Assembly: GCA_964510025.1 (NCBI GenBank)
Contig: CAZDZV010000004.1
Location: 611 to 64,610, forward strand
DNA from: an uncultured Methanosarcinales archaeon
GTDB taxonomy: Archaea; Nanobdellota; Nanobdellia; Woesearchaeales; DATDXC01
Direction of reading: 5' to 3'
DNA length: 64,000 nt
The position numbers were made by a program, and so were the translations under genes. Positions 38,100 to 55,842 of this stretch are shown in pieces. Under the pieces are notes generated by a model. The model was not told the origin of the DNA and ran no database searches. It saw only the letters and a list, made by a program, of their open reading frames with translations. Each line of letters starts with the position of its first letter. Position 1 is the first letter of the stretch.

Positions 38100-38160
38100 T
38101 TTTTCACCTCTTTTGTTGACATTTGTAGGAACATAACCTACTTACCTTATCTTTGGCACA

Positions 38161-38180
38161 ACTTATATATAAACTTTTTG
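38161..38180 (-). promoter_or_regulatory. TATA-like element upstream of the tandem pilin genes
   Basis: The minus strand reads 'tttatatataagt', ~65-75 nt upstream of the ATG at 38099, with SD 'gaggtg'. Confidence 0.25.
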
Positions 38181-38204
38181 TTTTTGAATATACTAGTATA
38201 GGGA

Positions 38205-41200
38205 TTATGTACCCCACCTCCAGACTCTCGCCTCGACAATAGTAGGCCCCCACATGAAAGGTATCCTGCCTATGCTTACTGTCTCGACATCCAGATCATT
38301 GGCTCCGAACTTCACAAACAGCAGTCCATCATCATCAAAATCAAGCTGGTCAAAAAGCCTGCATATGGCATTGTTTATGGCATCCTGATCATAGTCTGTA
38401 TCGCAGGAAGTGAAAGCGTTGAATGTGCAGTTTGCAGAGCTGTTATAGCTGTTAGGTATAGGCACATCAGCATATGTCCCATCCTCAAATCCAAGCGTCC
38501 AGATGCAGCCCTCTGCCTTTGCAAAGACGCCAGTGTAGTTCATGTCCATCCTTATCCCTATAGTATATATAGCCATGTCATCTGCAGAGCCGATTGATAC
38601 GTTATGGCTGCCCTGTGCTGTTGATATCCTGACAGTATTGTTCCCTGGTCCGAGCAGACCCACAGGGATATTAACTATATATGGGTCTCCCAGATAAGAG
38701 TACTCAACCCCGTAATCAGATATGTTATAGAATGTGTCCCATGCAGAGCCGTTCCACACAGATGCCCTGTCCGTCCATCTTTCTCCTGAATAGGATGTCA
38801 GCTTGGCATCATACAGCAGGACCTGGGGGGGCACTGTAAACGATCCCTGGGTTATATTGTTGCTGAACCTCGGGCTTTCGACGATCACAGGTATCCTTGC
38901 GTATTCAGTCTGGTTCAGCTCAAGGCTGTAGTTGAACTCGATGTATGAATCAGGATATAGCTCATTGCTCACGTTGCCTGTCACATTTGCTGTCTGGGCT
39001 GCAAACTGCAGCTCGATCATGTCGCTGGCTATCTGCCTGTAGATGTCCATCAGCTGCGCAGCATCATTGGCATCATAGGCATGGCTGCAGTCATCGCAGC
39101 ATGCTATATCGTCCATCAGGCCTGTATCTGCTCCAGAGCCGAAAGCCACCGAATATATCCTTATGCCGAACCTGTCAAAAGCATCGCATGCCTTCTGCAC
39201 AGCCTCGTCCTCTGCTCCGCTTAGGTCGTAGTTGCTCCTGGTGCCGATCCTTGTGTTGGCCTCTCCGTCGCTCATCACAAGCATGGACATGAACCTGTCA
39301 TAAGACAGCTCATCGTCGCTCCACTTCAGCGTAAGGTTGAGGTTCCTGAACCTCCAAAGGTCATTGTCGTCATCTGTGTGCAGGCAGCCTGTTGTTGTGC
39401 CGGAAAACAGCCTTATCTCAACATCTGAGCTGTTCAGCACCATCACCGGAACATCTAGCAGAACCTCCTGCCACTCATTGTCTCCTGACCATCTTTGGTA
39501 GTCGATCCTTCCTATATACTGTCCGTTTACGTAAACGCAATCATAAGAATCAGGATTGACATCCAGCGCCTCAAATCTCAGCAGTCCTGCCCTTATCTGG
39601 TCTGTGCCTATGCCTGTATTAAAGACCACGCTGGACGACTCTGCCCCGTCATCCAGCACGACAAGGCTTGGATCAGAAAAGCTTGAATCATGAATCTCCG
39701 AGCTATGCTCCCAGGCTATCAGCTCAACATGCTTCAGGTCCCAGTCATCCTGTTCCCCTGCTGTGTCAAAGCACCCGTTTACATTTGCTCCTGTGACAGT
39801 TATATTATTGGTGCCTGTGTTGGCAACGCTGTAATTTATCTTTACGCTTTCCAGCACCGGCGTCCTTGAGGTGTTTGCAGTTGAGAGGTTTGCCCTCCAC
39901 TGTATATATCTGGAATCTGCCTGGGCTATTGGCCCCGCATCATCATAGGCAGCGCTGCTCCATGCGAAATTATCCCACGAACCATCTGGAACAGCAACGT
40001 CTCCTGTCCTGATCTCAAGGTATATGCTTGTACCGGCTGGCAGCTCATTTTCCCAGCTTATGCTGCCCCAGTCAGCATCGCCCCCTGCATAGTATACCGG
40101 GCTCATTATCCAGCCGTCAGCTGAATATTCTGACGTGAGGTCCCCTTCCTCCATCTCTGGCCCAAAGCTGAGAAAGCTGTCATTCATCGAGAGGTATTGC
40201 GCAGCTATCCAGTCATCAGACCTCGCAGCGTTGGAAAGCCTGAGCTCATCTATCATTCCGTCAAGCTCCTCTTCCCCGCCTGTTCCGTCATGCATCCTGG
40301 TGTTCCCATAGCCTGCCCTGATGTCCCCTGAATGGGCATAGAGCCTCCTGCCTTCCCCAGCGCCAAATTCAGTTCCATCCAGGTATCCTTCAAAGCAGTC
40401 GCCGCAAAAATTATCAGTTCCGTCCCTGAGCCTCAGGGCCACATAATGCCATTCTCCTGTACCGATGCCTGTGCTGAGCCATGTGCCGTCCCAGTCGCTC
40501 TGCCCTGAATCCCTGTTCCATCCTCCAACATATGCATTTCCCGAGCTTAGGTATATATTCAGTCCTCTTGTGCCGCCTCCCTGCTCATATATGATATTCT
40601 TTGCACCTCCATCGATGGTGTCTGCCCTGAACAGCACCTCTATGGTCTTGTCATCCCATGGACCGCCATCGTTTATCTCATCGCTGTTGGCTATTGTGCT
40701 GTAGTCGTTGTTGCCATCATAATCGTAGGCTCCATCCACGATGCCTGAGCTAGAGCCCGGGCAGTTGCCGCATCCAAGATCATTGTTGAAGGAGCTGGAA
40801 TCCTGGTCATCATCCATATGGTACACCCCGATGAAATCATCATCCCATACAGCTGCAGCATCCTGGTCATCTGGTGCGCCGTTGTTGCCGTAGTATACCC
40901 ATATATAACCTGTATCAGAATAGCCGTCTATAGATGCCCTGACCCATACATATGAGCTCCCGCCTTCATCCCATTCCTCTATCTCATGGGCCAGCTGCGC
41001 TCCCTCGTCATCCACAAACCTTATGTCCTGTCCCATGTCCTGGGTTTCGCTGTAGTCTATCCTGGTGCTGTCCAGCCTCACAAGCACTGGAAAATCAGGC
41101 AACTCCCCTTGTCCTGAATTATCAAACGCTATCTTCCTCCTTTTCAGCCAGGCGCTGTCCCACCATGCGTCAGCCTGCTTCAGCACTGCGTCTCCGGGAG

Positions 41201-43082
41201 ATGCCATGACATCCACAAGGCTCTCTGAGCATGCCTGGAAATCTGCCTGGGAGCTTGTGCTCCATTCCCCATATGCAATCCCTGAACTTGGCAGCCACTC
41301 CTCTTTTATTGGATATGAGCATGTATGCCAGCCTGTGCTGTCGTCGTCGTTTGACTCGCACATGCGTCCGAGATAGTGGCCGTTAAGGAACACGCAGTCC
41401 CTGTAGCCATCCTCAACGTCAACGCCTCTGCCGAACAAGGTGAGCCGTGATTTGACAAAAGCGCTCTTGTTGACATCCAGGTTGAAGCTGATCTCTGCAG
41501 ACACAGGCCCTGTGTCCCCGAGATGCCTTGCTGTGCTGTCTGATTGCACCTTCATCTCGCTGCCATACAGCGCTCTTTTCTCAGTCAGCAGCTCTGCAGC
41601 TGTATTTATTCCGCACGATATGCATGTCCACCCGCACCATTCGTCGTAATAGTCATCGATCCTGGACTGCAATGAAGCGTTGTCCCCGGAAAAGGGATGG
41701 AAGGAGCAGACAGGACTGGTCCTTTTTCCGTAGCCTACCAGGCTCACCTCGTTGCCCGGGACGCTTAGCATCTCCTCCACGAATGTCTTGTCTGAACCCT
41801 GGGCAACCCTGTCTCTTCTCTCATGGCAGGGAGAAGATCCGTCGCATATTCCAGGCTCGCTGCAGTCTATATCAACATCGCATCCCCTCATAGAGCCGGT
41901 CCTGTCTGTTATCAGGACAGCATCTGATTTGCCGCCGTAAAAGAAAGTTATGTTCTCTATGCCCAGCCTTATGGGCACTGTTGCCTTGCTTATGGTGTTA
42001 TAGTCCAGCGCCGCTGAGAACACCGAATCGTTGACAAATACGCTTTGCGGCACTGTTGACGTGCTTGTCTCGAACACAGTAACATTGCCCACTGTGAAAT
42101 ACACAGGAGTATTGGACATGAAGTGAAGGAACATGTTGATATTGTTGACCATGCCAGGTATGTAGAAGGAATCATAGATGTTTATGATGCCGTCGATGCC
42201 CGGAAAGAAATATCGTTTCCTGGTTATGTTGTTATAGGCGCCGAGCTCTGATGTCTGGAACTTCAGCTTGAAATATCCTCCTCCGATATATGCATCCTTT
42301 GTAGAGTTGAACGAAAAGAGCATGATGTTGTCTCCCGCGTCAAAATTCGATAGGTAGCTCTCGTTGATCACCCATTTGTCAGCTGTTAGGTTGTGGGGAG
42401 CTGGGCTGGGAGAGACAGCGTAGCTGCCTGAGAAGTTGCCGTTCACATACAGCTCAAAGCTCGAGCCTGCATCCAGCTCCATATACCCATAGTCGATAGA
42501 TGTCAGGGATATAGGGAGCGACAGTATGCCTGTAATGTTCCCCTCTCCGATATATCCTCCGAAATACAGGTAAGCTGCAGAGGTCCGCTCATTTATTTCA
42601 GAAAGGAACACCCTGGATGTCAGGCCTTCCACAGCCCTGTCTTTCTCCATGCCGGTGACCATCTGCTTGGAGGAAATAAGCTGCGTGACAGGCCTGTCTG
42701 TCGATGTGAAGATCGGGTCATCATACCCTTCCACCCAGATGCCGATGCTGTAATCATTGGGTATCAGGGAGCCGATCGTAAGGTTTAAGAGCTGCCTTGC
42801 CTTCTGCTCGCTTCCCTCTATCTGGAACCTCAGGATCTGCTCGACCACTGTCCTGTTGAAATCTGTTACGTTCGTGTTGTTCAGGAAAGCTGCAATATCT
42901 GCATCATCAAACTCGCGCAGCTCCATATCAGAAAGCAGCTGTATCATGTCAGAGGAATAATATACCGCAGAGGTGGTGTCCTGCGCCCTGAGATAGAACA
43001 TGGGCATGAGGATTATCACCACTATTATGAGCATGACTGCGATAAGTGCATCTAGACTAAATAGTATCCCGTTTCTGCCCAT
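38205..43082 (-). CDS. Giant surface adhesin-like protein (1625 aa): pilin-like N-terminal anchor, VWA MIDAS site, LamG-like domain
   Basis: N-terminus 'MGRNGILFSLDALIAVMLIIVVII' (G-1, hydrophobic helix, D+6). MIDAS-like 'VLITDRTGSM'. Laminin_G_3-like 'WHYVALRL...EGYLDG...DELRLSNAARSDDWIAAQY'. Later VWA-like 'LVMSDGEAN...IRIYSVAFGSGADTGL'. Asp-rich stretches and many N-x-S/T sequons. N- and C-terminal ~150 aa are homologous to the second giant gene. Confidence 0.75.
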   Translation of the reverse strand: MGRNGILFSLDALIAVMLIIVVIILMPMFYLRAQDTTSAVYYSSDMIQLLSDMELREFDDADIAAFLNNTNVTDFNRTVVEQILRFQIEGSEQKARQLLNLTIGSLIPNDYSIGIWVEGYDDPIFTSTDRPVTQLISSKQMVTGMEKDRAVEGLTSRVFLSEINERTSAAYLYFGGYIGEGNITGILSLPISLTSIDYGYMELDAGSSFELYVNGNFSGSYAVSPSPAPHNLTADKWVINESYLSNFDAGDNIMLFSFNSTKDAYIGGGYFKLKFQTSELGAYNNITRKRYFFPGIDGIINIYDSFYIPGMVNNINMFLHFMSNTPVYFTVGNVTVFETSTSTVPQSVFVNDSVFSAALDYNTISKATVPIRLGIENITFFYGGKSDAVLITDRTGSMRGCDVDIDCSEPGICDGSSPCHERRDRVAQGSDKTFVEEMLSVPGNEVSLVGYGKRTSPVCSFHPFSGDNASLQSRIDDYYDEWCGWTCISCGINTAAELLTEKRALYGSEMKVQSDSTARHLGDTGPVSAEISFNLDVNKSAFVKSRLTLFGRGVDVEDGYRDCVFLNGHYLGRMCESNDDDSTGWHTCSYPIKEEWLPSSGIAYGEWSTSSQADFQACSESLVDVMASPGDAVLKQADAWWDSAWLKRRKIAFDNSGQGELPDFPVLVRLDSTRIDYSETQDMGQDIRFVDDEGAQLAHEIEEWDEGGSSYVWVRASIDGYSDTGYIWVYYGNNGAPDDQDAAAVWDDDFIGVYHMDDDQDSSSFNNDLGCGNCPGSSSGIVDGAYDYDGNNDYSTIANSDEINDGGPWDDKTIEVLFRADTIDGGAKNIIYEQGGGTRGLNIYLSSGNAYVGGWNRDSGQSDWDGTWLSTGIGTGEWHYVALRLRDGTDNFCGDCFEGYLDGTEFGAGEGRRLYAHSGDIRAGYGNTRMHDGTGGEEELDGMIDELRLSNAARSDDWIAAQYLSMNDSFLSFGPEMEEGDLTSEYSADGWIMSPVYYAGGDADWGSISWENELPAGTSIYLEIRTGDVAVPDGSWDNFAWSSAAYDDAGPIAQADSRYIQWRANLSTANTSRTPVLESVKINYSVANTGTNNITVTGANVNGCFDTAGEQDDWDLKHVELIAWEHSSEIHDSSFSDPSLVVLDDGAESSSVVFNTGIGTDQIRAGLLRFEALDVNPDSYDCVYVNGQYIGRIDYQRWSGDNEWQEVLLDVPVMVLNSSDVEIRLFSGTTTGCLHTDDDNDLWRFRNLNLTLKWSDDELSYDRFMSMLVMSDGEANTRIGTRSNYDLSGAEDEAVQKACDAFDRFGIRIYSVAFGSGADTGLMDDIACCDDCSHAYDANDAAQLMDIYRQIASDMIELQFAAQTANVTGNVSNELYPDSYIEFNYSLELNQTEYARIPVIVESPRFSNNITQGSFTVPPQVLLYDAKLTSYSGERWTDRASVWNGSAWDTFYNISDYGVEYSYLGDPYIVNIPVGLLGPGNNTVRISTAQGSHNVSIGSADDMAIYTIGIRMDMNYTGVFAKAEGCIWTLGFEDGTYADVPIPNSYNSSANCTFNAFTSCDTDYDQDAINNAICRLFDQLDFDDDGLLFVKFGANDLDVETVSIGRIPFMWGPTIVEARVWRWGT

Positions 43083-43092
43083 CTAGCACCTC

Positions 43093-44043
43093 TCATATCT
43101 CCCAGTTCAGTAAGGTCAGGTTATACCTTTCAAGATGGCCTGAATCCAGCTTTACCCAGTCAGGCGTGAAGTTGATCCTGTAGTCTCCGTCTCCAGAATC
43201 TGTCCAGTAATGATAGTCTATTATGCTGCTGTCCCCATGGACGCTGAGCCCCTGTTCGCTTACTTTTATCAGGTTGACCATGCTCTCTATGCCGCAGCAG
43301 CCTGAGCTTGTCAGGTTGTTCTCGAATCTCATCAGGAAGCTCGGTGCATCCCCGCTGTCCACATAATATGAGTTCTCGATGTGCTCCATCAGGTTGCTGA
43401 CGTTCCATTTAACCTTCTTGAAGGTATAGTTGCCTTGATAGGGTGTTGCATTTATGACATTGGTTATCCTGCCAAGGCTGTAGACGATATACAGGGGATC
43501 CTCAAAGCTGTTGATCTTTATCTGGGACTCTATCTGCTGCTCCCTTCTCCAGGATGCGATGCCTGCCGTGTCATCTATGTAAAAAGAGATATTTGTCCAT
43601 ACGACCACATGCCACGGGTCTGTCTGGAAGATATCTGTTTCATGAAGCACCATGCTGACATTTATCTTCAGCTTGTTGGATTCCAGCCTAATATTCTCGA
43701 GCCATTGGGGCAGAGTAGAGCCTATCATCAGGGTGGAATTGGTGCTGTTCACTGTCCCGTACAGCAGGGCTTCCATGAACATCTCCTCAGTATTGTTCAG
43801 GAACTTCCCTTCCCTTATGATATACTCCTCCAGGGCCATCAGCGCCCTGTATGAGCTGATATATATTCCTCTCTCGACGTCCCTCTCAAGGTCCTTGACA
43901 AAATCATTCATCGAGTCTACTCTCATCTCTATCACAGACATCCTCTCGTTTATCCTTTTGTAGCTCGGCATCATGAACACAAAAAGGAAAACAAAAAGGA
44001 AAGCTATCGTCATCAAAGTGAAATACATGCCTTTTTTTTTCAT
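43093..44043 (-). CDS. Membrane-anchored pilin-like/secreted protein (316 aa)
   Basis: N-terminus 'MKKKGMYFTLMTIAFLFVFLFVF' (basic leader + G + hydrophobic helix) with an N-x-S/T-rich ectodomain. Start set at the Met overlapping the upstream stop. Confidence 0.5.
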   Translation of the reverse strand: MKKKGMYFTLMTIAFLFVFLFVFMMPSYKRINERMSVIEMRVDSMNDFVKDLERDVERGIYISSYRALMALEEYIIREGKFLNNTEEMFMEALLYGTVNSTNSTLMIGSTLPQWLENIRLESNKLKINVSMVLHETDIFQTDPWHVVVWTNISFYIDDTAGIASWRREQQIESQIKINSFEDPLYIVYSLGRITNVINATPYQGNYTFKKVKWNVSNLMEHIENSYYVDSGDAPSFLMRFENNLTSSGCCGIESMVNLIKVSEQGLSVHGDSSIIDYHYWTDSGDGDYRINFTPDWVKLDSGHLERYNLTLLNWEI

Positions 44044-47000
44044 CTCCACACCCTCGCCTCCACAACTGTGGGCCCCCACATGAAAGGTATCTTGCCTATG
44101 CTTACTGTCTCGACATCCAGGTCTGAGGGCCCGAATTTTGCAAACAATCTGCCGTCATCGTCAAAGTCAAGCTGCTGGAAGAGCCTGCACATAGCGTCAT
44201 TGACAGCGTCATCCTTGAATTCTGCGCCGCAGTCAGTGCTATCTGTAAAATTGCAGTCCTTTGTGCCGTTGTAGCTAGCTGGTATCATCATGCTTATGTT
44301 TTGGCCGTCCTCGAACATAAGGCTCCAGTTGCATCCCTCTGCCTTGGAAAACACCCCTGAATAGCTCAGGTTTATCTTTATGCCGAGCGTATAGATGGCC
44401 CTGTCAGCAGGGCTTCCGCCAACCCATTCCACTGCGCCTGAGCCGGTCTGTATCCATACTTGATTTTCTCCCTCATGGGTATAGCTCACAGGGATGCTTA
44501 TTATGAATGGGTCGCCTAGAGCATGGTAGTCATAGGACATCTCAGAAAGGTTGAATATATCTATGTAGCCTGTATCCAGCAGCCCCAGATAGCTTGCCCA
44601 CCTGTCGTCTGAATATGATGTTACTTTTGCCTCGAGCAGCTTTGATTCAGATGGTACAAAGAAGCTTCCCTTTGTCTGGTTATTGTTGAATCTCGGAGTC
44701 TCCAGAGTCAAAGGTATCACTGAATAGTCCAGTGATTCATCTATATCCTGATAGACAAACTCTATATAGGATCCCCTTCTTATGACAGAGCTAACGTTGG
44801 ATGAAAGGCTCAGGTTTATCACCTGGGATTCATAGGCAATCTCATAGGCTATAGTGCTGTATATCAGGGCAAGGTCCTCAGCGTTTGAGCCCTTGTAGAA
44901 CTTGCCGTTCGAGACGTTCGCTATCTTCGCTAAAGTGGACGAGCCTGCGTCGCTGCCGAAGCCTTTCGTATATATTGTTATATCGTATTCCTTGGAGATG
45001 TTCTCCGAGAGGTTGATCGCCTCCTCGATGGCCGCTTCTCCGCATTCAGAGCCGTCCAGGCACACATTGGCCTCCCCATCAGTCATCAGCACGATGTATC
45101 TTTTCTCGGCAGTTCCGTTGTTGATGAGTATAGAAGCGCTTCTTTCTATAGCGCACGATAGGCATGTAAGCCCGCTATCTGCATGATATCCCTCGATCTC
45201 CTCATAAAGCATGGTGCGGTTAAGGCTGAGATTGGTGGCGCTGGTGACGCCTGTGCCGTACCTTACAAGCCCAAGCTGGACCTTGTCGCCCAGGATTATC
45301 TCGTCGACGAATTCCCGGTCAAGCTTCTTTGCCAGCCTGATCCTGACAGAATCGCAGATATAGCAGCTCCCGTTTTCAGCTATGCACATCTCGCCCGAGC
45401 ATCCATATCTCTCGCCTATAGGCTCAGACAGGCCGGGGATGCATTGCTCTGTGTTTTCCGTAGCACCCTTGCAGTGGTCTTCTGTGTCACAGCAGGCATT
45501 GCTTGTATCTGTAGAGCAAAGGATCGCCCCGCAGCAATAGTCCATATATGTATAGCATCTTGTCTCAGTGCAGCATCTGACCTCTTCCTGCTCGCATTCA
45601 TATTCAAGCGTTGTCTCATCGCAGCAGCACAGTCCGGAGCACAGGCTGCATTCGCTGCAGCTGACATAGCCCGGATCGCATGAGGCTTCCTCTGTGCAGT
45701 AGAAGGCTCCGTATCTTGTCTGGCCAGTATAGCATTCTGATGCAAGGCATGTGGGATTGAGGGGGTCTCCTGGATCATATGGCCTCCAGCTGATATCATT
45801 GAATATTGGATAGTATATTTCCTCTCCAGGCAGGCATTCATCTGGCGCGCCGCAAAATGGCTTATCCCTGTATACGCAGTTGCAGTAGTAGGCATTCCAG
45901 TCTTTTTCAGACGCGTTGCAGCTGCCTATGCCCGGCCTGCATAGACTGAACGATGTGACGCTATTGCCGTTCTCATCATATCCATAGATCAGCCCAAGAT
46001 TATCGCATATCCTGTCCCCGTAGCTGTCCCTCTGGTACCAGGCACAGTCCTTATACTCATGGAAGCACTGTCCGTCCGGGCAAAACCCAGCAGGGCATGC
46101 TGCTGCACCGCATTCAACAAGCGTGTCATAGCTGAGGCTTCCGTTGGAATAAGGATGAGATGGCGGACAGTCTGTGCTGCAGTTGTCCATCCATAGGCAC
46201 TCTCTGTCGCTGTATACTATTTTTTCAAAATCAGGTGCATCAAAAAAAGCCTCAGGCGCATAAGCCTCGTCTGCCACAGGCCTCTCTGGTGGGCAGTGCG
46301 ATGTCTCGTACCTGCACCAGTCAGGCATATCACCTATGCCGTCATCAGGGCAGCTTGACTGGTTAAGGGCCATAGCATGAGACATTATCTCTCTGTCTGT
46401 CAGTATCCTTTTGTGTATAGCCAGCTCATCCATGCTTGCCCTAAGCTGGCAGCAGCTCTCACTGTACCTGTATCCGATATAGAGCATCTTCCCTATCTGG
46501 ATGGTTCTTCCTCCCCCTGTACCGACCATATGGCCGTCTACATATATCTGGGATTCTGTCTTATTTACAGTAACGGCAATATGCTGCCATTTATCATTTT
46601 TCAGATAAGCTGACGGTGATTGCACCCGAGCATACCAGCAGATGTTTCCTTGTTCAGGGCAGTTGCTGGAAACATAATCCTGCAGGTACCACCAGTTGCC
46701 GTCAGCTCTGGCGTCGAGCAGGTATTGGGATCCCTGGTTCCAGTCTGCTTTTCTCATCCAGAACTCTATTGTCATCGCTTCTGGATCGCCCAGGTCATCC
46801 TCTATCCTTATGAATTGTGAGCCTGTGAATTCTGCAGAGCTGCCGATGACGCCCGTGTCAAGGCCCAGGGCCCCTGAGACATTGACAGTTCTGTTCCATC
46901 CTGATGAGTCCTGCAGCGGCATGCTGTCGAAATGCAGCAACAGCAATGTGTCCTGGTCCGGCCTGATCTCCCTTGAATCCATGCACTCCCTCATGCTGTT

Positions 47001-48227
47001 CGAGGTGTCTGTCACCAGAACAACATCAGATGTCGAGATATTTTTTTCAGCAAGCCCGAACCTGAATGGTATGGTCTTCTTTGACATTTCTGTGTAGTTA
47101 AGCAGATTGGACAGGGTATAGTTGGATATTGTTCTCTGGATAGTGCCGACTCCGGTGTGCTGGTAGACAGTGGTATTGCCTATATTAAAGAAAGTTGACA
47201 CGCTGGCAGCCGGGTTTACTGCATAATCCAGGTAGACCTTCATGGATTTCAGCAGCCCCTGGACAAAAAAGGAAGAATAAAGGTTTATAACCCCGTCTAT
47301 CTCTGGCAGCCAAAAGGTCTCAGTTATGATGTTCCCCCCCTCATATCCGCCGTAGCTGATGCAGCTGCCGTAGCCCCCGCAAATTATCTCATACTTGTCA
47401 TAGAGGTTGGAGGTTGTGTATCCTACCCTTATGAATCCTCCCCCTATGTAAGCATCCTGGATATCATGGAAAGCTACTGTTACATAGTTATCTCCTGCAT
47501 GGAAAAAGCTTGTGTTGGCCTCGATGATGGTTGGTATGGCCTCGGCAGTCTGATTTGTGGCATTAAACCTTCCCACAAATGCGTTGTTCACGAAAAGGTC
47601 AAAATCCTGGACCACCCTCATCTCTATATAGAACGAGTTCACGCTGCTTATCTCCCACGGCAGCACGATCTTTTTGGTGATATTGCCGTTGCCCACGTAT
47701 CCGCCGAAGTACGAATAGACTGCAGATATCTTCTCATCCAGCTCAGACAGGAATACCCTTGAGGTGAATCCCTCGATAGCCTTTTCCCTTTCTATGCCTG
47801 ACACCAGGGCCTTGGCTGAGATGAGCTGCCTCACCCTGCCCAGGGTGTTGTTGAAAACAGGATCATCATATCCCTCTACCCAGAAGCCGAAGTTGACCCG
47901 GCCAGGTATAACATCCCTGGTCGTCAGGTTCATCAGCTTTTCAGCTCTTTCATGATCTCCAGCTACCTTGAATCTCAGCACCTGCTCCATGATCGTCCTG
48001 TTGTAGTCAGTGACATTGCTGTTGTTAAGAAGCTCCCTGACAGCAGCATCATCTATCTCGCCTACCTTTATCTTTGACAGGGACTGCACGATATCGCTTG
48101 AAAAATACATTATCTGGGGATCCTCTTCCTGCTTCACATAAAACATCGGTATTATCACCAGTACAGATATTATGAGCACTGTGGCGATCGTTGCATCAAT
48201 GCTGAAAAAAACACCTCTCTTCACCAT
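44040..48227 (-). CDS. Giant surface adhesin-like protein (1395 aa), paralogue with extreme Cys-rich insert
   Basis: 'MVKRGVFFSIDATIATVLIISVLVII' N-terminus. MIDAS-like 'VVLVTDTSNSM'. LamG-like 'WQHIAVTV...IYVDGHMVG...MDELAIHKRILTDREI'. ~330 aa segment with more than 60 Cys. VWA-like 'IVLMTDGEAN...ITIYTKGFGSDAGSS'. C-terminus '...DFDDDGRLFAKFGPSDLDVETVSIGKIPFMWGPTVVEARVWR' matches the first giant. Confidence 0.75.
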   Translation of the reverse strand: MVKRGVFFSIDATIATVLIISVLVIIPMFYVKQEEDPQIMYFSSDIVQSLSKIKVGEIDDAAVRELLNNSNVTDYNRTIMEQVLRFKVAGDHERAEKLMNLTTRDVIPGRVNFGFWVEGYDDPVFNNTLGRVRQLISAKALVSGIEREKAIEGFTSRVFLSELDEKISAVYSYFGGYVGNGNITKKIVLPWEISSVNSFYIEMRVVQDFDLFVNNAFVGRFNATNQTAEAIPTIIEANTSFFHAGDNYVTVAFHDIQDAYIGGGFIRVGYTTSNLYDKYEIICGGYGSCISYGGYEGGNIITETFWLPEIDGVINLYSSFFVQGLLKSMKVYLDYAVNPAASVSTFFNIGNTTVYQHTGVGTIQRTISNYTLSNLLNYTEMSKKTIPFRFGLAEKNISTSDVVLVTDTSNSMRECMDSREIRPDQDTLLLLHFDSMPLQDSSGWNRTVNVSGALGLDTGVIGSSAEFTGSQFIRIEDDLGDPEAMTIEFWMRKADWNQGSQYLLDARADGNWWYLQDYVSSNCPEQGNICWYARVQSPSAYLKNDKWQHIAVTVNKTESQIYVDGHMVGTGGGRTIQIGKMLYIGYRYSESCCQLRASMDELAIHKRILTDREIMSHAMALNQSSCPDDGIGDMPDWCRYETSHCPPERPVADEAYAPEAFFDAPDFEKIVYSDRECLWMDNCSTDCPPSHPYSNGSLSYDTLVECGAAACPAGFCPDGQCFHEYKDCAWYQRDSYGDRICDNLGLIYGYDENGNSVTSFSLCRPGIGSCNASEKDWNAYYCNCVYRDKPFCGAPDECLPGEEIYYPIFNDISWRPYDPGDPLNPTCLASECYTGQTRYGAFYCTEEASCDPGYVSCSECSLCSGLCCCDETTLEYECEQEEVRCCTETRCYTYMDYCCGAILCSTDTSNACCDTEDHCKGATENTEQCIPGLSEPIGERYGCSGEMCIAENGSCYICDSVRIRLAKKLDREFVDEIILGDKVQLGLVRYGTGVTSATNLSLNRTMLYEEIEGYHADSGLTCLSCAIERSASILINNGTAEKRYIVLMTDGEANVCLDGSECGEAAIEEAINLSENISKEYDITIYTKGFGSDAGSSTLAKIANVSNGKFYKGSNAEDLALIYSTIAYEIAYESQVINLSLSSNVSSVIRRGSYIEFVYQDIDESLDYSVIPLTLETPRFNNNQTKGSFFVPSESKLLEAKVTSYSDDRWASYLGLLDTGYIDIFNLSEMSYDYHALGDPFIISIPVSYTHEGENQVWIQTGSGAVEWVGGSPADRAIYTLGIKINLSYSGVFSKAEGCNWSLMFEDGQNISMMIPASYNGTKDCNFTDSTDCGAEFKDDAVNDAMCRLFQQLDFDDDGRLFAKFGPSDLDVETVSIGKIPFMWGPTVVEARVWR

Positions 48228-48724
48228 ACATACAGCACCAGTCTTATTATCTGTGAGTCGTAGTTGACAAACCTCAGGATCTTGATGAGCTGCTCGGGAT
48301 CTGAATCCTTGTAGTTAGCGCCGATCTCATCCACTCCATCTATGTTCACTGTATTATTGTCCTTATCTTCAAATGTGACGTAGTAGTTCCTGTCTGTCGA
48401 AAGGAGCAGCCTCGACCTGTCATAATCAGCCAGTGCGATATTGTTGAAGTTGCCCACCTTGTTGGCATCCAGGTCCATGCTTCCGTTTGTAAGCCCGATT
48501 ATCACCGCATTTCCTGGTTCCCAGTCTGCGGGATAGCCGCTTGAAACGAGATAGTTTGATACAAGCTTTGCATCGATCAGCAGGTTATCCATGCCCTGTT
48601 CCTTTACATCAAGTGCAGAGGTGCTGTACTGATAGAAGATATAGATGCCTACAGAGAATATCAGCAGCGCTATAGCGATGTCAGCTCCCCACATCTGCGC
48701 TTTAGTTGATGTATATCGTTCCAT
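48221..48724 (-). CDS. Pilin-like protein (167 aa) with N-terminal hydrophobic helix
   Basis: 'MERYTSTKAQMWGADIAIALLIFSVGIYIF' has class-III-like A-1/Q+1 with D at +6. Overlaps both neighbouring genes. Confidence 0.5.
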   Translation of the reverse strand: MERYTSTKAQMWGADIAIALLIFSVGIYIFYQYSTSALDVKEQGMDNLLIDAKLVSNYLVSSGYPADWEPGNAVIIGLTNGSMDLDANKVGNFNNIALADYDRSRLLLSTDRNYYVTFEDKDNNTVNIDGVDEIGANYKDSDPEQLIKILRFVNYDSQIIRLVLYVW

Positions 48725-49079
48725 TTGTCTTGTTTATTATGTTTATGCCCTTGGTGATGGTCCCGGTGACATTAGGTATCTCTTTCCAGAAATCCTGGTT
48801 GTCGGCATGGATGATCACATATTTTCCTTCTATGGATATTGAATAGTTCTTGGTAAGCAGCTTCTCAGGCAGAGTGAATTCCCTGACATAGCCGTCTACG
48901 ACCCTTGCGGCCAGATTTACCTCTTTCTGTATCTTGCTTACCACAGAATCCGCAACCAACAGGAACTTGTTCCTGTTCACTACAGTTGTGTTGTATGCCA
49001 CTGCTCCCATCACAATGGCAAATATGAATAGCATGCCTCCCACAAGAAGCATGAATTCCGTTGATGCCTGCGACTTCAT
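48702..49079 (-). CDS. Archaeal type IV pilin-like protein, class III signal peptide
   Basis: 'MKSQASTEFMLLVGGMLFIFAIVMGAVA': Q+1, E+5, then a hydrophobic helix. Confidence 0.7.
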   Translation of the reverse strand: MKSQASTEFMLLVGGMLFIFAIVMGAVAYNTTVVNRNKFLLVADSVVSKIQKEVNLAARVVDGYVREFTLPEKLLTKNYSISIEGKYVIIHADNQDFWKEIPNVTGTITKGINIINKTNGTIYIN

Positions 49080-49492
49080 GTTGAGTTTATGAATACATAT
49101 CCCTCGTTCGCTTCTACGCTTACATATTGGTATCCCTCTGATGTTTTTATGCTGCCCTTCAAAGGGATAGGAGACAAATAGAAGATATCAGATTCGCCCA
49201 TCCTTGTCTGTACCTTGAAGGATATCTCATAGGCGACATCAGTCGGATCTGCAGGATCAAGGCTATTGAGGTTCACTGAATTTACCCCGCCCGGCATGTA
49301 TATCTTGATGGTGGTTTTGGTCGGCGCGCCGTAGTAGTAGATGGATTCAGCAGTATCGACGATCTCCTTGGATATCTGGTCTATCTGGTTTGTATTTATC
49401 GTGCCTCTGACCTCAGACGAATAATGAGAGGATACAGCTATTATCGACAGAGCTATGAAAGTGGCCACTCCAACAACAAGCACGTATTCCAA
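49076..49492 (-). CDS. Pilin-like protein; annotated TTG start probably too short (upstream in-frame '...RLGQVGLEY' gives a class III signal)
   Basis: From the TTG: 'LEYVLVVGVATFIALSIIAVS'. The in-frame upstream codons read 'ISREIRLGQ|VGLEYVLVV' (Q+1/E+5) with no ATG or GTG. A possible ATT start lies 7 nt after SD 'AAGAGGTG' at ~49528. Confidence 0.55.
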   Translation of the reverse strand: MEYVLVVGVATFIALSIIAVSSHYSSEVRGTINTNQIDQISKEIVDTAESIYYYGAPTKTTIKIYMPGGVNSVNLNSLDPADPTDVAYEISFKVQTRMGESDIFYLSPIPLKGSIKTSEGYQYVSVEANEGYVFINST

Positions 49493-49690
49493 GCCTACCT
49501 GTCCCAGCCTTATTTCTCGAGAAATTCCTATACACCTCTTGGTGGAATATATAAATTACTACTATATAAATTTAATCATATTCTCTCATCCAGCATCCGG
49601 AATATAGTCACTATCTCAGAATTAATACATAGCTTTAAAAAACAAATAGGCAGATAGTATAATTGGGTAGTGGTCAATATAGAATTTAGA
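49493..49690. promoter_or_regulatory. Divergent promoter region between the pilin/adhesin operon (-) and the assembly-machinery operon (+)
   Basis: AT-rich. Duplicated 'atataaatt' boxes ('gaatatataaattactactatataaattt') and SD-like elements facing both ways. Confidence 0.3.
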
Positions 49691-50536
49691 ATGGATGAGA
49701 AAAATATATCCGAAACTGAAAAAGAGCTGATAGGATACATACAAAAGCTGCTTTCTGAAAACCATACTAAGGATGATATCAAAAAAGCATTGCTGGAAGT
49801 GGGATGGCCGGAAGACTATGTAGCATCTATCCTTGAAAACACCGAAAAGCCGCTGATGCAGCCTGCTGATTCTGCGCCAGCTGACCTAAAGACCTATGAG
49901 ACAGAATTTGATAAGATAGTGGATCTGGCAAAAGAAAAAGGGAGCATAAAGGTATCAGCTCTGGCAAAGCATCTGGGAGCAGACAAGAAAAATATCGAGG
50001 AGTGGGCCACTATCCTTGAAGAGCACAACCTTGTTAAGATATATTACCCGCTGATTGGCGAAGCAGAGGTAAGAAAGACAGACTATAAGCCGCCGAAAAA
50101 GCCGAAAAGGCAGCCAAAGAAGGATAAGCCAAAGAAGGATAAGCCAAAAAAGACAGCAAACAGGCCTCTTTGTGTCTCGATAATAGCTGTCCTGTTTTTC
50201 ATCTCAGGCGGCTTTAGCCTTATTTACAGCCTTTTCCTGATGATACAGGGCGGGATGGGAGCTGCTTCAGCAAGCGCAGTGCCTATCGGCGGCCCGATCA
50301 TAGCAGAGATGATTAAGGGATTCTACATCTTCATAGTATTTATCCAGGTATTGGTTGGCGCCTTTTCGATCCTCATAGGGTTGGGCTTATGGAACCTGAA
50401 GAACTGGGCAAGGATAACCGCTATAGTCCTTCACGCCATAGGTATGCTGACCATAATAATGATACCGATATCCATTCTGATCATATATCTTCTTTCGAAA
50501 AAAAGCACCAAGCAGGCATTCATGGAAGTGAGATAA
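49691..50536 (+). CDS. Membrane protein with cytoplasmic winged-helix-like N-domain, Lys/Pro repeat linker and 4 TM helices
   Basis: 'KGSIKVSALAKHLGADKKNIEEWATILEEHNLVKIYYPLIGEAEV' looks wHTH-like. Linker 'KPPKKPKRQPKKDKPKKDKPKK'. C-terminal half is hydrophobic. An alternative GTG start lies at 49670. Confidence 0.5.
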   Translation: MDEKNISETEKELIGYIQKLLSENHTKDDIKKALLEVGWPEDYVASILENTEKPLMQPADSAPADLKTYETEFDKIVDLAKEKGSIKVSALAKHLGADKKNIEEWATILEEHNLVKIYYPLIGEAEVRKTDYKPPKKPKRQPKKDKPKKDKPKKTANRPLCVSIIAVLFFISGGFSLIYSLFLMIQGGMGAASASAVPIGGPIIAEMIKGFYIFIVFIQVLVGAFSILIGLGLWNLKNWARITAIVLHAIGMLTIIMIPISILIIYLLSKKSTKQAFMEVR

Positions 50537-50537: not shown

Positions 50538-52052
50538 GTGGAAGAGATAGACAGGTATGAGGTAACTGCCGATGAGATAAAGGCAGAAGTCCGCATACTT
50601 GGCGGAAAAGGCATCATGAACACATACAACCTCATAGTGCCAACTGTCAGCAAGCCCACGATGGCACTCATAGAAGAGCTGAAGCAGGAGCTTATCATGA
50701 ACGTGAAGGTCAGCGCTGCTGAGATCCTGGATCCGAAGATCATGAACAAGCTTAAGCAGAAGTTCAAGGAAGAGTCCCAGCAGATGCTTAAGAAAAAGGT
50801 GCCCACCTTGGATGAGGACGCAAGAAATTTCCTGGTTGGCATCCTTCTTCATGACATGCTTGGCTTCGGCAAGACAGAATTTCTCCTGAATGATGGCGAC
50901 CTGGAGGAGATCATCATCAATTCCGCAACAGAGCCCGTGAGGGTGTACCATAAGAAGTTCGGCTGGCTGGAGACCAACATAAGCATCGAATCCGAAGACA
51001 AGATACAGAACTTCAGCAACATGATCGCAAGAAGGGTAGGAAGGCAGATCAACACCCTTAATCCCCTGCTTGACGCCCATCTGATCACAGGAGACAGGGC
51101 CAATGCTGTCTTTTACCCTATAGCAAACAAAGGGAATACTATTACCATCAGAAAATTTGCCAGGGACCCCTGGACTGTAACTGACTTCATAACGAACAGG
51201 ACATCAAATGCAGATATCTTTGCGCTTATCTGGCTCGCCATGCAGTATGAGATGAACATAATAATCAGCGGAGGCACAGGCTCGGGAAAGACAAGCTTGC
51301 TGAACGTTTGCATGCCGTTTATCCCGCCAAACCAGAGGATCATAAGCATTGAGGATACAAGGGAGCTGCAGCTTCCTAAGTTCCTTTACTGGTGCCCTCT
51401 GACGACAAGGCAGCCTAATCCTGAGGGAAAAGGCGAGGTTACTATGCTTGATCTGCTCGTAAATTCGTTAAGGATGAGGCCAGACAGGATCATACTTGGA
51501 GAGATAAGGAGGAAGACAGAGGCCCAGGTCCTTTTCGAGGCAATGCACACCGGCCACAGCGTCTATGCCACCATACACGCGGATTCCACAAAAGAGACCA
51601 TACAGAGGCTTATAAATCCGCCTATCAGCGTTCCCAAGAATCTGCTCTCAGCCGTAAACCTGAACGTGGTCATGTTCAGGGAAAGGAGAAGGACATTGAG
51701 AAGGGTCTACCAGGTCGGCGAATTCGTTGTAGGCGAAGAGGCCCAGAACATATCGGTCAAGCAGAATGTGCTTTTCAGGTGGAAGCCTTCCAACGATAGC
51801 ATTGTCCAGCATTCGCCGTCGGTCAGGATCTACGAGGACCTGAGCAGGCACACCGGTCTCTCAGAATCAGAGATAAAGAAAGATCTGGAAGGAAAGAAGA
51901 AGGTGCTGAGCTACATGGTGAAAAATAAGATCCGAAGCCTGAATGAGGTGGGCAAGGTGATGAAGGATTTCTACCTGGACCCCAATGGAGTTGTTGATGC
52001 TGTGGAGAAGAATGTTCACCCTGAAAAGATATTAGGTAGTCACGATGTTTAA
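50538..52052 (+). CDS. Type II/IV secretion-family assembly ATPase (FlaI/PilB/GspE/VirB11-like)
   Basis: Walker A 'IIISGGTGSGKTSLLN', Asp box 'RPDRIILGEIRR', His box 'MHTGHSVYATIHAD'. GTG start. Confidence 0.85.
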   Translation: MEEIDRYEVTADEIKAEVRILGGKGIMNTYNLIVPTVSKPTMALIEELKQELIMNVKVSAAEILDPKIMNKLKQKFKEESQQMLKKKVPTLDEDARNFLVGILLHDMLGFGKTEFLLNDGDLEEIIINSATEPVRVYHKKFGWLETNISIESEDKIQNFSNMIARRVGRQINTLNPLLDAHLITGDRANAVFYPIANKGNTITIRKFARDPWTVTDFITNRTSNADIFALIWLAMQYEMNIIISGGTGSGKTSLLNVCMPFIPPNQRIISIEDTRELQLPKFLYWCPLTTRQPNPEGKGEVTMLDLLVNSLRMRPDRIILGEIRRKTEAQVLFEAMHTGHSVYATIHADSTKETIQRLINPPISVPKNLLSAVNLNVVMFRERRRTLRRVYQVGEFVVGEEAQNISVKQNVLFRWKPSNDSIVQHSPSVRIYEDLSRHTGLSESEIKKDLEGKKKVLSYMVKNKIRSLNEVGKVMKDFYLDPNGVVDAVEKNVHPEKILGSHDV

Positions 52053-52938
52053 GATTCCATATGCCCTGCTTCCCGAGCCTGCATTGCAGAAAAATTCATC
52101 TTTCTTCATCGGGCTTGGCGCTGCGCTCGAAAAGTCATTTCCATTCCTTAAGCTGGCCCTCAAGCAGGCTGAGACAGACTATTCGCCGAGGGAATACCTC
52201 AGCATGTGCCTTATGGCCAGCACCATCTTTTTCTTTTTTTTCCTTTCCTTCCTGACATTTGTCCTGCTGATACTGGACGTTGATAACTTTTTCCTCATGG
52301 CTCTGATGGCTGCCACTGCGATAACCATGTTCGCATTTTTCCAGCAGATAAGCTATCCTAAGATACATGCGAACAGGCGGCTGCGGGATATTGAGAGGAA
52401 CCTGCTCAGCGCCCTGCAGAACATCCTGATCCAGCTCAACTCTGGCGTGCCCTTGTTTGAGACAATGGTCAATGTCTCAAAAGAGGATTATGGTGAGATA
52501 TCCAAGGAGTTCTCCAAGGCTGTAAAGGCTATAAACGGAGGCAAAGACCAGATAGAGGCGCTGGAAGATATGGCTGCAATCAACCCGTCATTATTCTTCA
52601 GGAGAGCTATTTGGCAGCTAGTCAACGGCATGAAATCAGGTGCTAATATGACCACGGTCATACAGGAGATAATAGACCTCCTCGCAGAGGAGCAGATCCT
52701 GCAGATCCAAAGGTATGGTAGCCAGCTGAACCCCTTGGCCATGTTCTATATGCTGGTAGTGGTGATTGCTCCCTCGCTGGGCATGACATTCATGCTCGTC
52801 CTTTCATCATTTATCAGCCTTCCGGAGGTCATGACAAAGATGATGTTTTGGGGGGTATACGCGCTGGTTACTTTCTTCCAGATAATGTTCATGGGCATCA
52901 TTAAGTCAAAGAGGCCCAATTTGCTTCAGAGTGATTAG
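52045..52938 (+). CDS. T2SSF-domain membrane protein (FlaJ/TadB/TadC-like), first half
   Basis: Its ATG overlaps the ATPase stop. Single T2SSF-like repeat with flanking TM helices. Confidence 0.7.
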   Translation: MFKIPYALLPEPALQKNSSFFIGLGAALEKSFPFLKLALKQAETDYSPREYLSMCLMASTIFFFFFLSFLTFVLLILDVDNFFLMALMAATAITMFAFFQQISYPKIHANRRLRDIERNLLSALQNILIQLNSGVPLFETMVNVSKEDYGEISKEFSKAVKAINGGKDQIEALEDMAAINPSLFFRRAIWQLVNGMKSGANMTTVIQEIIDLLAEEQILQIQRYGSQLNPLAMFYMLVVVIAPSLGMTFMLVLSSFISLPEVMTKMMFWGVYALVTFFQIMFMGIIKSKRPNLLQSD

Positions 52939-53932: not shown

Positions 53933-54649
53933 ATGCACTATAGGTATTTTTTGATGGCTATAGAGAGGATAGCGACAGGCATAGCCGGGCTGGACGGCCT
54001 TGTGGGAGGCGGATTCAAGCGCAACACCATAAACCTTATAGCTGGAGCTCCTGGCACAGGAAAGACCATATTCGCTGTCCAGTTTATCATGGAGGGGATA
54101 AGGAAAGGGGAGCCCGGCGTCTACATAACTTTCGAGGAAAAGAAGAAAAATGTCTATGAAGACATGCTGGAATTTGGATGGGATCTTGAAAAAGCCGAGA
54201 AGGAGGGGAAATTTATCTTTATGGAATACACCCCTGAGCAGGTCAAGAACATCCTGACAGAAGGCGGAGGCATTGTTGAGTCAGTTATCGAGAAGACAAA
54301 AGCAAGAAGGATAGTCATTGACTCCATAACCTCATTCACCCTGCTCTATGGGGACGAGCTTACAAAAAAAGAGGCTGCACTTGCCTTATTTGAGCTGATC
54401 TCAAAGTGGAACTGCACCGGGCTTCTGACGTCCCAGGATATCTCCAAGGATGAACTTACGATATCAACTGCGCTGGAGTTTGAGGTTGACGGCATAATCC
54501 TTGTTTATCATGTCAGAAAAAAAGGCACAAGGATAAGGGCTATAGAGATACTTAAGATGAGGGGTACAAAGATACCTGAAAAGACATTCCAGCTTGAGAT
54601 AACAAATAAGGGTATCAAGATCAATACCCAGAAGATAGAGATGCTGTAA
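53933..54649 (+). CDS. KaiC/RecA-superfamily ATPase (FlaH-like)
   Basis: 'IATGIAGLDGLVGGGFKRNTINLIAGAPGTGKTIFAVQF' is the KaiC/RadA-like P-loop context. 238 aa, matching FlaH size. Confidence 0.7.
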   Translation: MHYRYFLMAIERIATGIAGLDGLVGGGFKRNTINLIAGAPGTGKTIFAVQFIMEGIRKGEPGVYITFEEKKKNVYEDMLEFGWDLEKAEKEGKFIFMEYTPEQVKNILTEGGGIVESVIEKTKARRIVIDSITSFTLLYGDELTKKEAALALFELISKWNCTGLLTSQDISKDELTISTALEFEVDGIILVYHVRKKGTRIRAIEILKMRGTKIPEKTFQLEITNKGIKINTQKIEML

Positions 54650-54663
54650 AAAAAGGTGATAGG

Positions 54664-55842
54664 ATGATAAAGGTTAAGGAACTGATGGTCAAGGATGTAA
54701 TAACGATAAATGCTGATGAGAGCGCCTATAGGGCAAGCGAGATCATGGCTGACAATTCTGTAAGCTGCCTTATAGTGATGGAAGACAGCAAGCCTATCGG
54801 CGTTTTAAGCGAGAGAAGCCTGGTGCATGACGTCCTTCTTAAGGAAAAAAATCCTAAAGACACCAGGGTTTCAGACATAATGAAAAAGATCAGCACCATG
54901 GGCCCTGATGAGCATTTCTTTTCCCTGGTTGAATACATGAGAAAGAACAACCTCAGGAGGGTTGTCATCGTAGATAAGGGCCAGCTGGCAGGCATCGTCA
55001 CAGAGACAGATGTCGTAAGGACATCCATAAGGCTCCAGAACTACCTGGAATCCAAGGCAATGGGAAAGGCAAAGAAAGGCGCTCTCATGAACAAGCTGGG
55101 CGACATACAGTTCGGCGTAAGAAAGATGAGCGCCGGATACAAGGACCTCAATGAGATCCTGCATGGAGGTTTTCCCTACAACAAGAGCATATTGCTGGTG
55201 GGCTCGCCTGGTTCAGGCAAGGGCCTGGTTGCTTTCACCTATATGAAGGAAGGGCTCATCTCGAAAAATAAGGTGGTTTATATCTGTATGAACGAGTTTC
55301 TCAAGGATATAGAGGGGCTCTTTGCATCTATTGGGGTGGATATAAACGATCATCTGAAGAAAGGCAATTTTGGCCTGATAAATATGTATAAGCAGATAAT
55401 CGATGACCCAAAAAGGATATTTAACGAGGAAGACCAGCTCCTGCTGAAGGAGTTTTCAGTCATCAAGGAGACGCTTCTTAACATAATCAAGGAATCAGAG
55501 GTCCCTATAAGGTGCGTTGTAAATGTCATTACCCAGTCATTGGTACTCCACAAGGAAGGAGTGGTCTATAAGTTCATATTGAGGCTGAATAATCTCCTAA
55601 AGGAGAACAACATTACTTCCCTCTTCTTTATCCACAGGGGGAAGAAAGATGACCAGTTTTCGGTCTCTATGGAGGAGATCATGGACGGGGTCCTGGATTT
55701 CAGCACAGAGAATGTGGGGCCACATGAGAAGAGGATTCTTACCCTGAAAAAGATGAAGCCTGAATTTGCCCATCTCCCGCTATACTACTACTACCAGTTT
55801 GACCGCACCAGGAACATGATGATAGACAGGATGAAGGATTAG
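54664..55842 (+). CDS. CBS-pair + KaiC-like ATPase-domain fusion protein with atypical Walker A (GSGKG)
   Basis: Two CBS-like repeats (aa 1-125; 'VKDVITI...', 'RRVVIVDKGQLAGIVTETDVV'). KaiC-like 'ILHGGFPYNKSILLVGSPGSGKGLVAFTY', with Gly replacing the Ser/Thr after the P-loop Lys. Confidence 0.65.
   Translation: MIKVKELMVKDVITINADESAYRASEIMADNSVSCLIVMEDSKPIGVLSERSLVHDVLLKEKNPKDTRVSDIMKKISTMGPDEHFFSLVEYMRKNNLRRVVIVDKGQLAGIVTETDVVRTSIRLQNYLESKAMGKAKKGALMNKLGDIQFGVRKMSAGYKDLNEILHGGFPYNKSILLVGSPGSGKGLVAFTYMKEGLISKNKVVYICMNEFLKDIEGLFASIGVDINDHLKKGNFGLINMYKQIIDDPKRIFNEEDQLLLKEFSVIKETLLNIIKESEVPIRCVVNVITQSLVLHKEGVVYKFILRLNNLLKENNITSLFFIHRGKKDDQFSVSMEEIMDGVLDFSTENVGPHEKRILTLKKMKPEFAHLPLYYYYQFDRTRNMMIDRMKD

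Follow-up and report, generated by a model that had tools for sequence, protein, structure and literature searches.

A lectin domain and a cysteine-rich module nested in the MIDAS loop of a predicted pilus adhesin from a DPANN archaeon

The closest described counterparts of the locus considered here are adhesive proteins of type IV pili. In Streptococcus sanguinis, PilB is a bimodular type IV pilin whose vWA domain has a functional metal ion-dependent adhesion site (MIDAS) with protruding 'arms' on its flanks, and PilC, which belongs to the same pilus, is a pilin with a ConA-like lectin module (PMC8179133). The vWA domain of PilY1 is enriched in cysteine, holding 7 of the protein's 11 Cys (PMC9210963). 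In archaea, two platform genes are the hallmark of 'System 1' (Epd-like) loci, which occur in methanogens and some DPANN (bioRxiv 10.64898/2026.04.22.720090); two large DUF2341 proteins in such loci were proposed in 2016 by Makarova to be PilY-like tip adhesins, and KaiC-family ATPases are associated with type IV pili (PMC4858521). The present analysis concerns a Cys-rich module within a giant vWA protein, the product of open reading frame (ORF) A, and its paralogue, ORF B, in a 64,000-nucleotide stretch of contig CAZDZV010000004.1 that is referred to throughout as the window. DPANN archaea, to which the source organism is assigned, are mostly uncultured episymbionts whose host recognition and attachment are largely unknown.

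The Cys-rich module is the second half of an insertion of 550 residues, made up of a LamG domain followed by the module, which occupies the beta1-alpha1 loop of the ORF A vWA domain and follows immediately on the MIDAS motif D407-x-S-x-S411. This topology follows from the offset of the VWA profile match, the upstream position of strand beta1 with its MIDAS motif, a minimal homologue, a curated alignment and AlphaFold2 (AF2) models. The two Pfam vWA families tested, VWA (PF00092; residues 962-1121, E=6e-8, 33.5 bits against a cut-off of 23.8) and VWA_2 (PF13519; E=3.9e-7, 31.1 bits against 27), both match ORF A, and the VWA match begins only at profile position 34, 550 residues downstream of beta1. 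In the minimal homologue P0006 (850 residues) nothing separates the MIDAS motif from the remainder of the domain, and the match runs from profile position 3. The curated alignment (A4; 17 sequences, built from trimmed sequences) shows D407, S409, S411, T1021 (column T642) and D1050 (column D671) to be invariant or nearly so, as is its column G672, and the Met that follows the motif is also invariant. ORF A thus retains a complete set of MIDAS residues, with DxSxS after beta1, Thr in a later loop and Asp after beta4, and metal binding is predicted. An AF2 model of residues 380-1140, built from 17 sequences, is confident on both parts of the split domain taken singly, with a predicted local distance difference test score (pLDDT) of about 95 for beta1 (residues 400-407) and 77-97 for residues 961-1135; 550 residues separate beta1 from alpha1. 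The LamG part, with pLDDT 55-86, is matched by Laminin_G_3 (PF13385; residues 468-614, E=3.3e-18, 66.7 bits against a cut-off of 27.6), and it alone accounts for the top Foldseek matches of the model in the PDB, which are ConA-like jelly rolls belonging to a GH43 arabinanase domain and to the receptor-binding domains of clostridial neurotoxins; it is accordingly predicted to be a ConA-like jelly roll with putative carbohydrate binding. By the canonical topology of vWA and I-domains the expanded loop would lie on the MIDAS face. A first-pass annotation of the window had proposed that the module was gained by domain insertion, and the insertion is indeed genuine and absent from the paralogue, but the module is not free-standing: it sits with LamG inside the MIDAS loop.

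Alignment of the two giants delimits the insert. ORFs A and B are 40% identical over the first ~410 residues and 45% over the last ~350, and at the homologous position ORF B has a loop of only 25 residues with 4 Cys (RGCDVDIDCSEPGICDGSSPCHERR; window 41820-41888), which lines up with the final four Cys in the module. Similar loops occur in P0004, P0034, P0023 and P0025, and the end of the module would on this comparison correspond to the ancestral loop, short and with 4 Cys, that stands in front of helix alpha1. The annotation correctly confined the insert to one of the two giants of the window (ORF B contains 27 Cys in 1625 residues), and its statement that the paralogue bears an Asp-rich, Cys-poor stretch at the same position was mistaken, because the large insert of ORF B lies in a different vWA loop. 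That insert, at about residues 506-1262 (window 39297-41567), comprises DUF2341 (Pfam, E=3.5e-13, in ORF B only), a LamG domain and unassigned Asp-rich regions, and enters just ahead of the strand 'MLVMSDGEAN', past the helix that follows the MIDAS Thr, in a loop that would be on the face opposite the insert of ORF A. The family therefore has two separate insertion hot-spots; the one adjoining the MIDAS is Cys-rich, and the one used by ORF B holds Cys-poor inserts.

The module itself is very rare. Searched exhaustively with HMMER at a threshold of E<=1e-3, 1.84 billion cluster representatives yielded six proteins, one of them the self-hit. P0039, P0040 and P0041 match over the full length of the module (45%, 37% and 35% identity), and P0042, whose cluster includes RLI98336.1 from a Guaymas Aenigmatarchaeota metagenome-assembled genome, matches in part. 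P0043, a Bacteroidota gliding-motility protein (E=1.6e-5), was rejected as a short spurious match that a profile did not reproduce and that is regarded as a coincidence of Cys hairpins. A scan of metagenomes yielded one further module locus, L004, and the module homologues (P0039-P0042, P0044 and the L004 ORF) are 27-45% identical. Every carrier other than ORF A has a different short pilin-type N-terminus (KG|xTPVIS...) and a different C-terminal domain, and all keep the same cassette order of MIDAS strand, LamG, Cys module and rest of vWA. When ORF A is compared part by part using BLAST, its N- and C-terminal domains lead to a Woesearchaeota-type family (family 1), with 36-45% and 43-53% identity to homologues and 40% and 50% to ORF B, respectively, and its LamG and Cys module match the second family only. 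It is this division of the matches that establishes the cassette as common to two pilin scaffolds. The gene for one carrier of the second family, P0041 (L001 5191-8412), is flanked by genes for ribosomal proteins and RNA polymerase subunits and does not belong to a pilus locus.

The module runs from SSCPDDGIGDMPDWCRYETSHCPP to CSGEMCIAENGSCYICDS (residues 624-960) and holds 43 Cys in 337 residues (12.8%), out of 58 in the whole protein; the more than 60 in ~330 residues given by the first-pass annotation was an overcount. In forty other ORFs of the window Cys makes up 1.1% of residues and no stretch of 337 residues has more than 12, against which the enrichment has a binomial P of ~1e-31. Cysteine is also what the homologues conserve. 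Across six sequences, residues identical to those of ORF A amount to 85% where it has Cys and to 23% at its other positions, and 31 of the 43 Cys are invariant (32 in a 5-sequence alignment). The number of Cys in the module is odd in every homologue (43, 41, 41, 41, 35, 35 and 35), and in each the count is made even by a stem Cys, Cys415 in ORF A, four residues after the MIDAS. The same rule extends to the family at large: when Cys are counted in the loop between MIDAS and helix alpha1 of 35 members, the count is even in 24, and in 9 more a single loop Cys is accompanied by one in alpha1 ('AKC'), so that 33 of 35 are even, with loop counts of 0, 2, 4, 8, 10, 16, 20, 36, 38, 42, 46, 48 and 56. 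Even the extra Cys specific to the LamG domain of ORF A come as two pairs, C523/C530 and C592/C593. Spacing between Cys in the module is mostly 4-8 residues, CxxC is rare (1-3 per module), His numbers 0-7 among the seven module sequences and aromatic residues make up ~12% of the ORF A copy. Taken together, the even counts, spacing, scarcity of CxxC and His, and aromatic content favour complete disulfide pairing over metal-thiolate clusters, and the module is very likely disulfide-bonded. None of the seven sequences contains a CxxCH haem-binding motif, and hence nothing marks the module as a multihaem cytochrome. The ORF A copy is acidic, with 61 Asp and Glu residues; acidity was considered and rejected as a defining property, since homologues vary in net charge between -44 and -3.

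Expansion of this loop is not peculiar to ORF A. A protein identical to ORF A is already on record (P0001), from an NCBI contig of 157.6 kb, and 37 homologues, annotated 'VWA domain-containing protein', come from Woese-, Nano- and Aenigmarchaeota. Across 35 family members the loop after the MIDAS spans 13-941 residues, with 10 Cys in 39 residues in P0011, 16-20 in ~115 residues in P0002 and P0007, and 46-56 in ~900 residues, including LamG/ConA-like domains, in P0023 and P0025. The first-pass annotation regarded so dense a module as unusual for an archaeal surface protein, a description that does not hold within this family, where many DPANN homologues likewise have that loop enlarged by Cys-rich sequence. 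On these comparisons the loop is clearly a hot-spot for Cys-rich expansion, and the pattern suggests where specificity evolves in these adhesins. Like ORF A, the loops of P0011, P0002, P0007, P0010, P0023 and P0025 are inserted directly after DxSxS-M, have even Cys counts and share its ends, a stem Cys after the MIDAS and a C-x-x-C just before helix alpha1; unlike that of ORF A, these loops, of 39-941 residues, go undetected by the module profile. A hidden Markov model of the module gave no significant match to the Cys-rich loops of the family-1 homologues, which leaves common descent of all the expansions unproven: the others either arose independently or have diverged beyond recognition. Within the JGI metagenome protein P0025, residues ~740-1000 form a Cys-rich insert in the same loop, unrelated to the module by profile, in which tandem units 'CC-x2-3-C ... 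VPYGSC(I)DGEDCC-x2-CDP' are followed by a repeated ANYTQANYSYYM motif. No repeat involving the ORF A module was found within window 36000-50000, and no reverse transcriptase was found among the window ORFs scanned, so that the module does not have the appearance of a target of a diversity-generating retroelement.

The genomic setting is that of a pilus locus (Table 1). A type IV pilus ATPase gene and two platform genes lie 2.3 kb from ORF A on the opposite strand, divergently transcribed, and six smaller ORFs with pilin-like leaders share the strand of both giants. By gene content this is an Epd-like (System 1) locus for an archaeal type IV pilus. All best matches of the PurA encoded in the window that bear a taxon name are from Woesearchaeota or Nanoarchaeota, and on these rests the assignment to a DPANN archaeon of Woesearchaeota type. 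The leaders of ORF A (MVKRG|VFFSIDA...) and ORF B (MGRNG|ILFSLDA...) both read, by eye, as class III, and the K/R-G-hydrophobic motif is conserved in ORF A homologues; with the linkage to pilus genes, the leader motif suggests that ORF A is an archaeal type IV pilin-like protein, for which cleavage and incorporation into the pilus are predicted. The three small ORFs upstream of ORF A, among which there is a weak DUF7266 match, are probable minor pilins. The tandem pair of small ORFs, with near-identical leaders (KGQ/KAQ-AAMEFLMTYGWAILVVLIAIGAL, QAAMEFLMTYGWAILVVL) and 5' parts that are 83% identical over 186 nucleotides, probably supply its major pilins, and the globular part of each contains 4-5 Cys.

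Table 1. Features of the adhesin and pilus locus, in window coordinates (aa, amino acid residues)
Feature	Position	Strand	Description or basis
ORF A	44040..48227	-	1395-aa giant pilin-like vWA adhesin bearing the Cys-rich module; uninterrupted ORF
N-terminus of ORF A, class III (type IV pilin-like) leader with its hydrophobic helix, MVKRG|VFFSIDATIATVLIISVLVIIPMF	48138..48227	-	By inspection
Family-specific N-terminal domain, aa 31-395	47043..48137	-	No match in Pfam scan
vWA strand beta1 and MIDAS, aa 400-412 (SDVVLVTD407-T-S409-N-S411-M)	46992..47030	-	A4 alignment, AF2
Stem Cys415 just after MIDAS (SM-x-x-C)	46983..46985	-	Near-invariant (C36 of A4)
LamG/ConA-like lectin jelly roll, aa 424-620, first part of insert	46368..46958	-	Pfam, AF2, Foldseek
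Cys-rich module, aa 624-960, second part of insert	45348..46358	-	43 Cys, 31-34 conserved
Last four Cys of module, aa 943-959, CSGEMCIAENGSCYIC	45351..45401	-	Aligns with ORF B 4-Cys loop
Rest of vWA, aa 961-1130, with MIDAS Thr1021 (GLTCLSC) and Asp1050 (LMTDGEAN)	44838..45347	-	Pfam, A4, AF2
Family-specific C-terminal domain, aa 1131-1395	44043..44837	-	Identity to family-1 homologues and ORF B
ORF B, paralogous giant adhesin, 1625 aa	38205..43082	-	Alignment to ORF A, Pfam
Pilin-like ORF of 328 aa between the two giants (MKKKG|MYFTLMTIAF...)	43093..44079	-	By inspection
Three small pilin-like ORFs upstream of ORF A	49076-49492, 48702-49079, 48221-48724	-	Hydrophobic class III-like leaders
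Two tandem paralogous small pilins, leader KGQ/KAQ-AAMEFLMTYGWAILVVL	36998-37519, 37503-38099	-	Leaders; 5' similarity
T2SSE-family ATPase	50538-52052	+	Pfam T2SSE E=1e-36
Two T2SSF platform proteins	52045-52938, 52941-53912	+	Pfam T2SSF E=5e-16, 3e-15
Two KaiC-like ATPases downstream of platform genes	53933..55842	+	PF06745 E=4e-59, 2e-27
ORF of 288 aa between divergent adhesin/pilin and machinery operons	49670-50536	+	Weak matches below cut-offs
Retropepsin-like/'Zn_protease' and RimK-type ATP-grasp genes	55880-57315	+	Directly downstream of KaiC-like pair
ORF of 1026 aa, TTG start	57354-60434	+	Adjoins pilus locus; no Pfam match

How might such a protein work? The reading favoured here, with moderate confidence, is that ORF A is a PilY1-like 'modular pilin' adhesin in which the module serves as an all-disulfide scaffold, holding the lectin domain over the ligand-binding MIDAS face and thereby re-shaping that face and setting its specificity. 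The 43 Cys of the module and Cys415 would form 22 disulfides, of which one would seal the insert at its base. The MIDAS of both ORF A and ORF B would bind a carboxylate of the ligand, and in ORF A the composite site, made of protein, metal and glycan, would differ from that of ORF B; the insert would in this way set binding specificity for a ligand on a host cell or surface, and the scaffold would provide a load-bearing filament with a mechanically and proteolytically robust tip. That the module may confer a distinct binding specificity, as the first-pass annotation suggested, is plausible from its position next to the MIDAS. Several points weigh against the proposal. AF2 provides no confident structure for the module, which has a pLDDT of 32 and a predicted template modelling score (pTM) of 0.16 when modelled alone from a 5-sequence alignment and is mostly below pLDDT 50 in its vWA context, and the class III signal peptide of ORF A was assigned by inspection by eye. 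Two family members, P0016 and P0020, break the parity rule with 5 loop Cys each, and the counts that make up the rule are not phylogenetically independent. Because net charge is unconserved, no conserved binding surface is evident on the module. No gene for a thiol-disulfide oxidoreductase was found among the ORFs scanned in the window, and anoxic settings, in which disulfides outside the cell are less favoured, are home to many DPANN. If extracellular disulfides do prove to be present in organisms often drawn from anoxic habitats, the question arises of how they are formed.

One alternative accepts a disulfide-rich module and assigns it a mechanical or redox role, as a rigid stalk, a protective shield or a set of force-sensitive disulfides that gate exposure of the MIDAS, a mechanism proposed for the Cys in the vWA domain of PilY1. 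It is motivated by PilY1, in which the Cys-enriched vWA domain is implicated in force sensing and Cys152 affects surface sensing (PMC9210963), and it would account for strong conservation in Cys alone rather than in surface residues or charge; an insert placed between the MIDAS and helix alpha1 could, moreover, occlude the site. However, the module always travels with a lectin-type LamG domain, the length and sequence of the loop are hypervariable in the family, which is more typical of specificity determinants than of a mechanical element under conservation, and no signalling partner is evident in the locus. A purely mechanical or redox function is on balance unlikely, though it is the chief rival reading.

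Less probable again is that the module is a metal-thiolate domain, resembling metallothionein or binding Zn or Fe-S, that sequesters or senses metals or attaches the pilus tip to metal or mineral surfaces. The density of Cys, including CC and CCC runs, and the acidity of the ORF A copy could be read in this way, as could a probably anoxic habitat and the failure to find a disulfide-forming enzyme among the window ORFs scanned. The parity of 33 of the 35 loops speaks against it, and counts such as 2, 10, 38, 42 and 46 are not multiples of 4. The few CxxC, the scarce His and the absence of CxxCH are likewise contrary to a metal site, the combination of ~12% aromatics with 12.8% Cys sets the module apart from metallothioneins, none of the Pfam metallothionein and zinc-finger families gives a match at E<=10, and the acidity is not kept among homologues. 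The first-pass annotation had left the choice between a disulfide-knotted and a metal-binding module, and it is the former that these data favour.

It is very improbable that the module descends by divergence from some common Cys-rich domain, whether EGF, granulin, TNFR, furin-like or keratin-associated repeats. The pattern CC-x4-C-x6-CC-x4-C-x7-CC-x5-C does superficially resemble granulin CC ladders, and a profile of the module gives a marginal PDB match to NELL1 (E=4.9). Even so, five module sequences searched against all of Pfam at E<=10 gave a single match, of one member to DUF3604 (E=0.22), so that the profile comparison, with EGF, granulin, metallothionein, keratin-associated and other families, detected no family relation; NCBIfam gave no match, neither single-sequence nor profile searches found a significant PDB relative, hhalign detected no internal repeats, and there remain only the six proteins among 1.84 billion representatives. 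The module is to be annotated, as far as sequence comparison can tell, as a new domain family. Finally, a non-protein artefact, be it a non-coding repeat translated into low-complexity sequence, a misassembly or a frameshift, can be dismissed with near certainty, since the Cys-rich stretch that the annotation placed at 45350-46350 lies in one open frame of 1395 codons, in a segment where the five other frames have 5-28 stops each and no DNA tandem repeat was found, is flanked in the same frame by LamG and vWA (Pfam), and is kept end to end in six homologues.

The surroundings of the locus contain several further genes. The 288-residue ORF between the divergent operons has weak saposin-B-like and MarR-like matches (E ~2e-4 to 7e-4, below cut-offs) and could be a regulator of the locus. 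The 1026-residue ORF has a hydrophobic N-terminus and 18 Cys, several of them clustered C-terminally, and may be another secreted or surface protein. Positions 1-35700 of the window are metabolically rich for a DPANN-type genome, encoding aspartokinase, homoserine and aspartate-semialdehyde dehydrogenases and biotin carboxylase with carboxyltransferase, along with a sugar cluster of aldose epimerase, galactokinase, and FGGY and PfkB kinases.

A more far-reaching possibility, which is put forward tentatively and is at present doubtful, is that the MIDAS loop of DPANN pilus adhesins is a dedicated diversification hot-spot, in which disulfide-locked lectin cassettes are grown, replaced and exchanged between unrelated pilin scaffolds (the Woesearchaeota-type giant adhesin and the Aenigmarchaeota short-pilin family) and determine the host cell of the episymbiont. 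Were this so, the adhesins would follow the logic of receptor-binding proteins such as phage tail fibres, with a vWA domain as the framework instead. Whether or not it holds, the locus is a concrete candidate for DPANN host attachment, comprising a pilus-associated vWA adhesin with a lectin and a very rare disulfide-type module predicted to lie on its metal-dependent face.

Set beside the systems with which this account began, ORF A resembles PilB and PilC in that a class III/pilin N-terminus has a bulky adhesion module grafted onto it. Unlike those pilins, it joins vWA and lectin in one protein, with the lectin nested inside the MIDAS loop; in place of the 'arms' of PilB it has 550 residues that include the 43-Cys module, and it is archaeal, with family-specific N-terminal (~400 residues) and C-terminal (265 residues) domains. 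The relation in sequence between PilB/PilC and ORF A is seen only through the shared vWA and LamG domain matches. PilY1 and PilY-like adhesins offer a second parallel, being large pilus-associated proteins with a complete MIDAS in a Cys-enriched vWA domain, and Epd loci of the Methanococcus type (PMC4858521) provide another, with two large paralogues side by side, of which ORF B here carries DUF2341. In ORF A itself, Pfam detects neither DUF2341 nor the C-terminal beta-propeller of PilY1/PilC, which sets it apart from the PilY1 family proper. The 7 Cys of the PilY1 vWA domain contrast, moreover, with 50 in ORF A between the MIDAS strand and the DG strand, and ORF A, with its pilin-like leader, differs further from PilY1 in that the latter is no pilin itself. 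Tip adhesins of sortase-assembled pili, such as RrgA of S. pneumoniae and its relatives, are alike in having insertions that flank the vWA MIDAS and shape the binding site (PMC8179133), but they are bacterial, belong to a different kind of pilus and have short arms that are not rich in Cys. Pilus adhesins in which inserts lie close to the MIDAS of a vWA domain are a known kind of protein; what is new is the nesting of a lectin and a 43-Cys module without known relatives inside the MIDAS loop, a cassette common to two archaeal pilin scaffolds, and the pattern of even Cys counts in a hypervariable loop across DPANN homologues.

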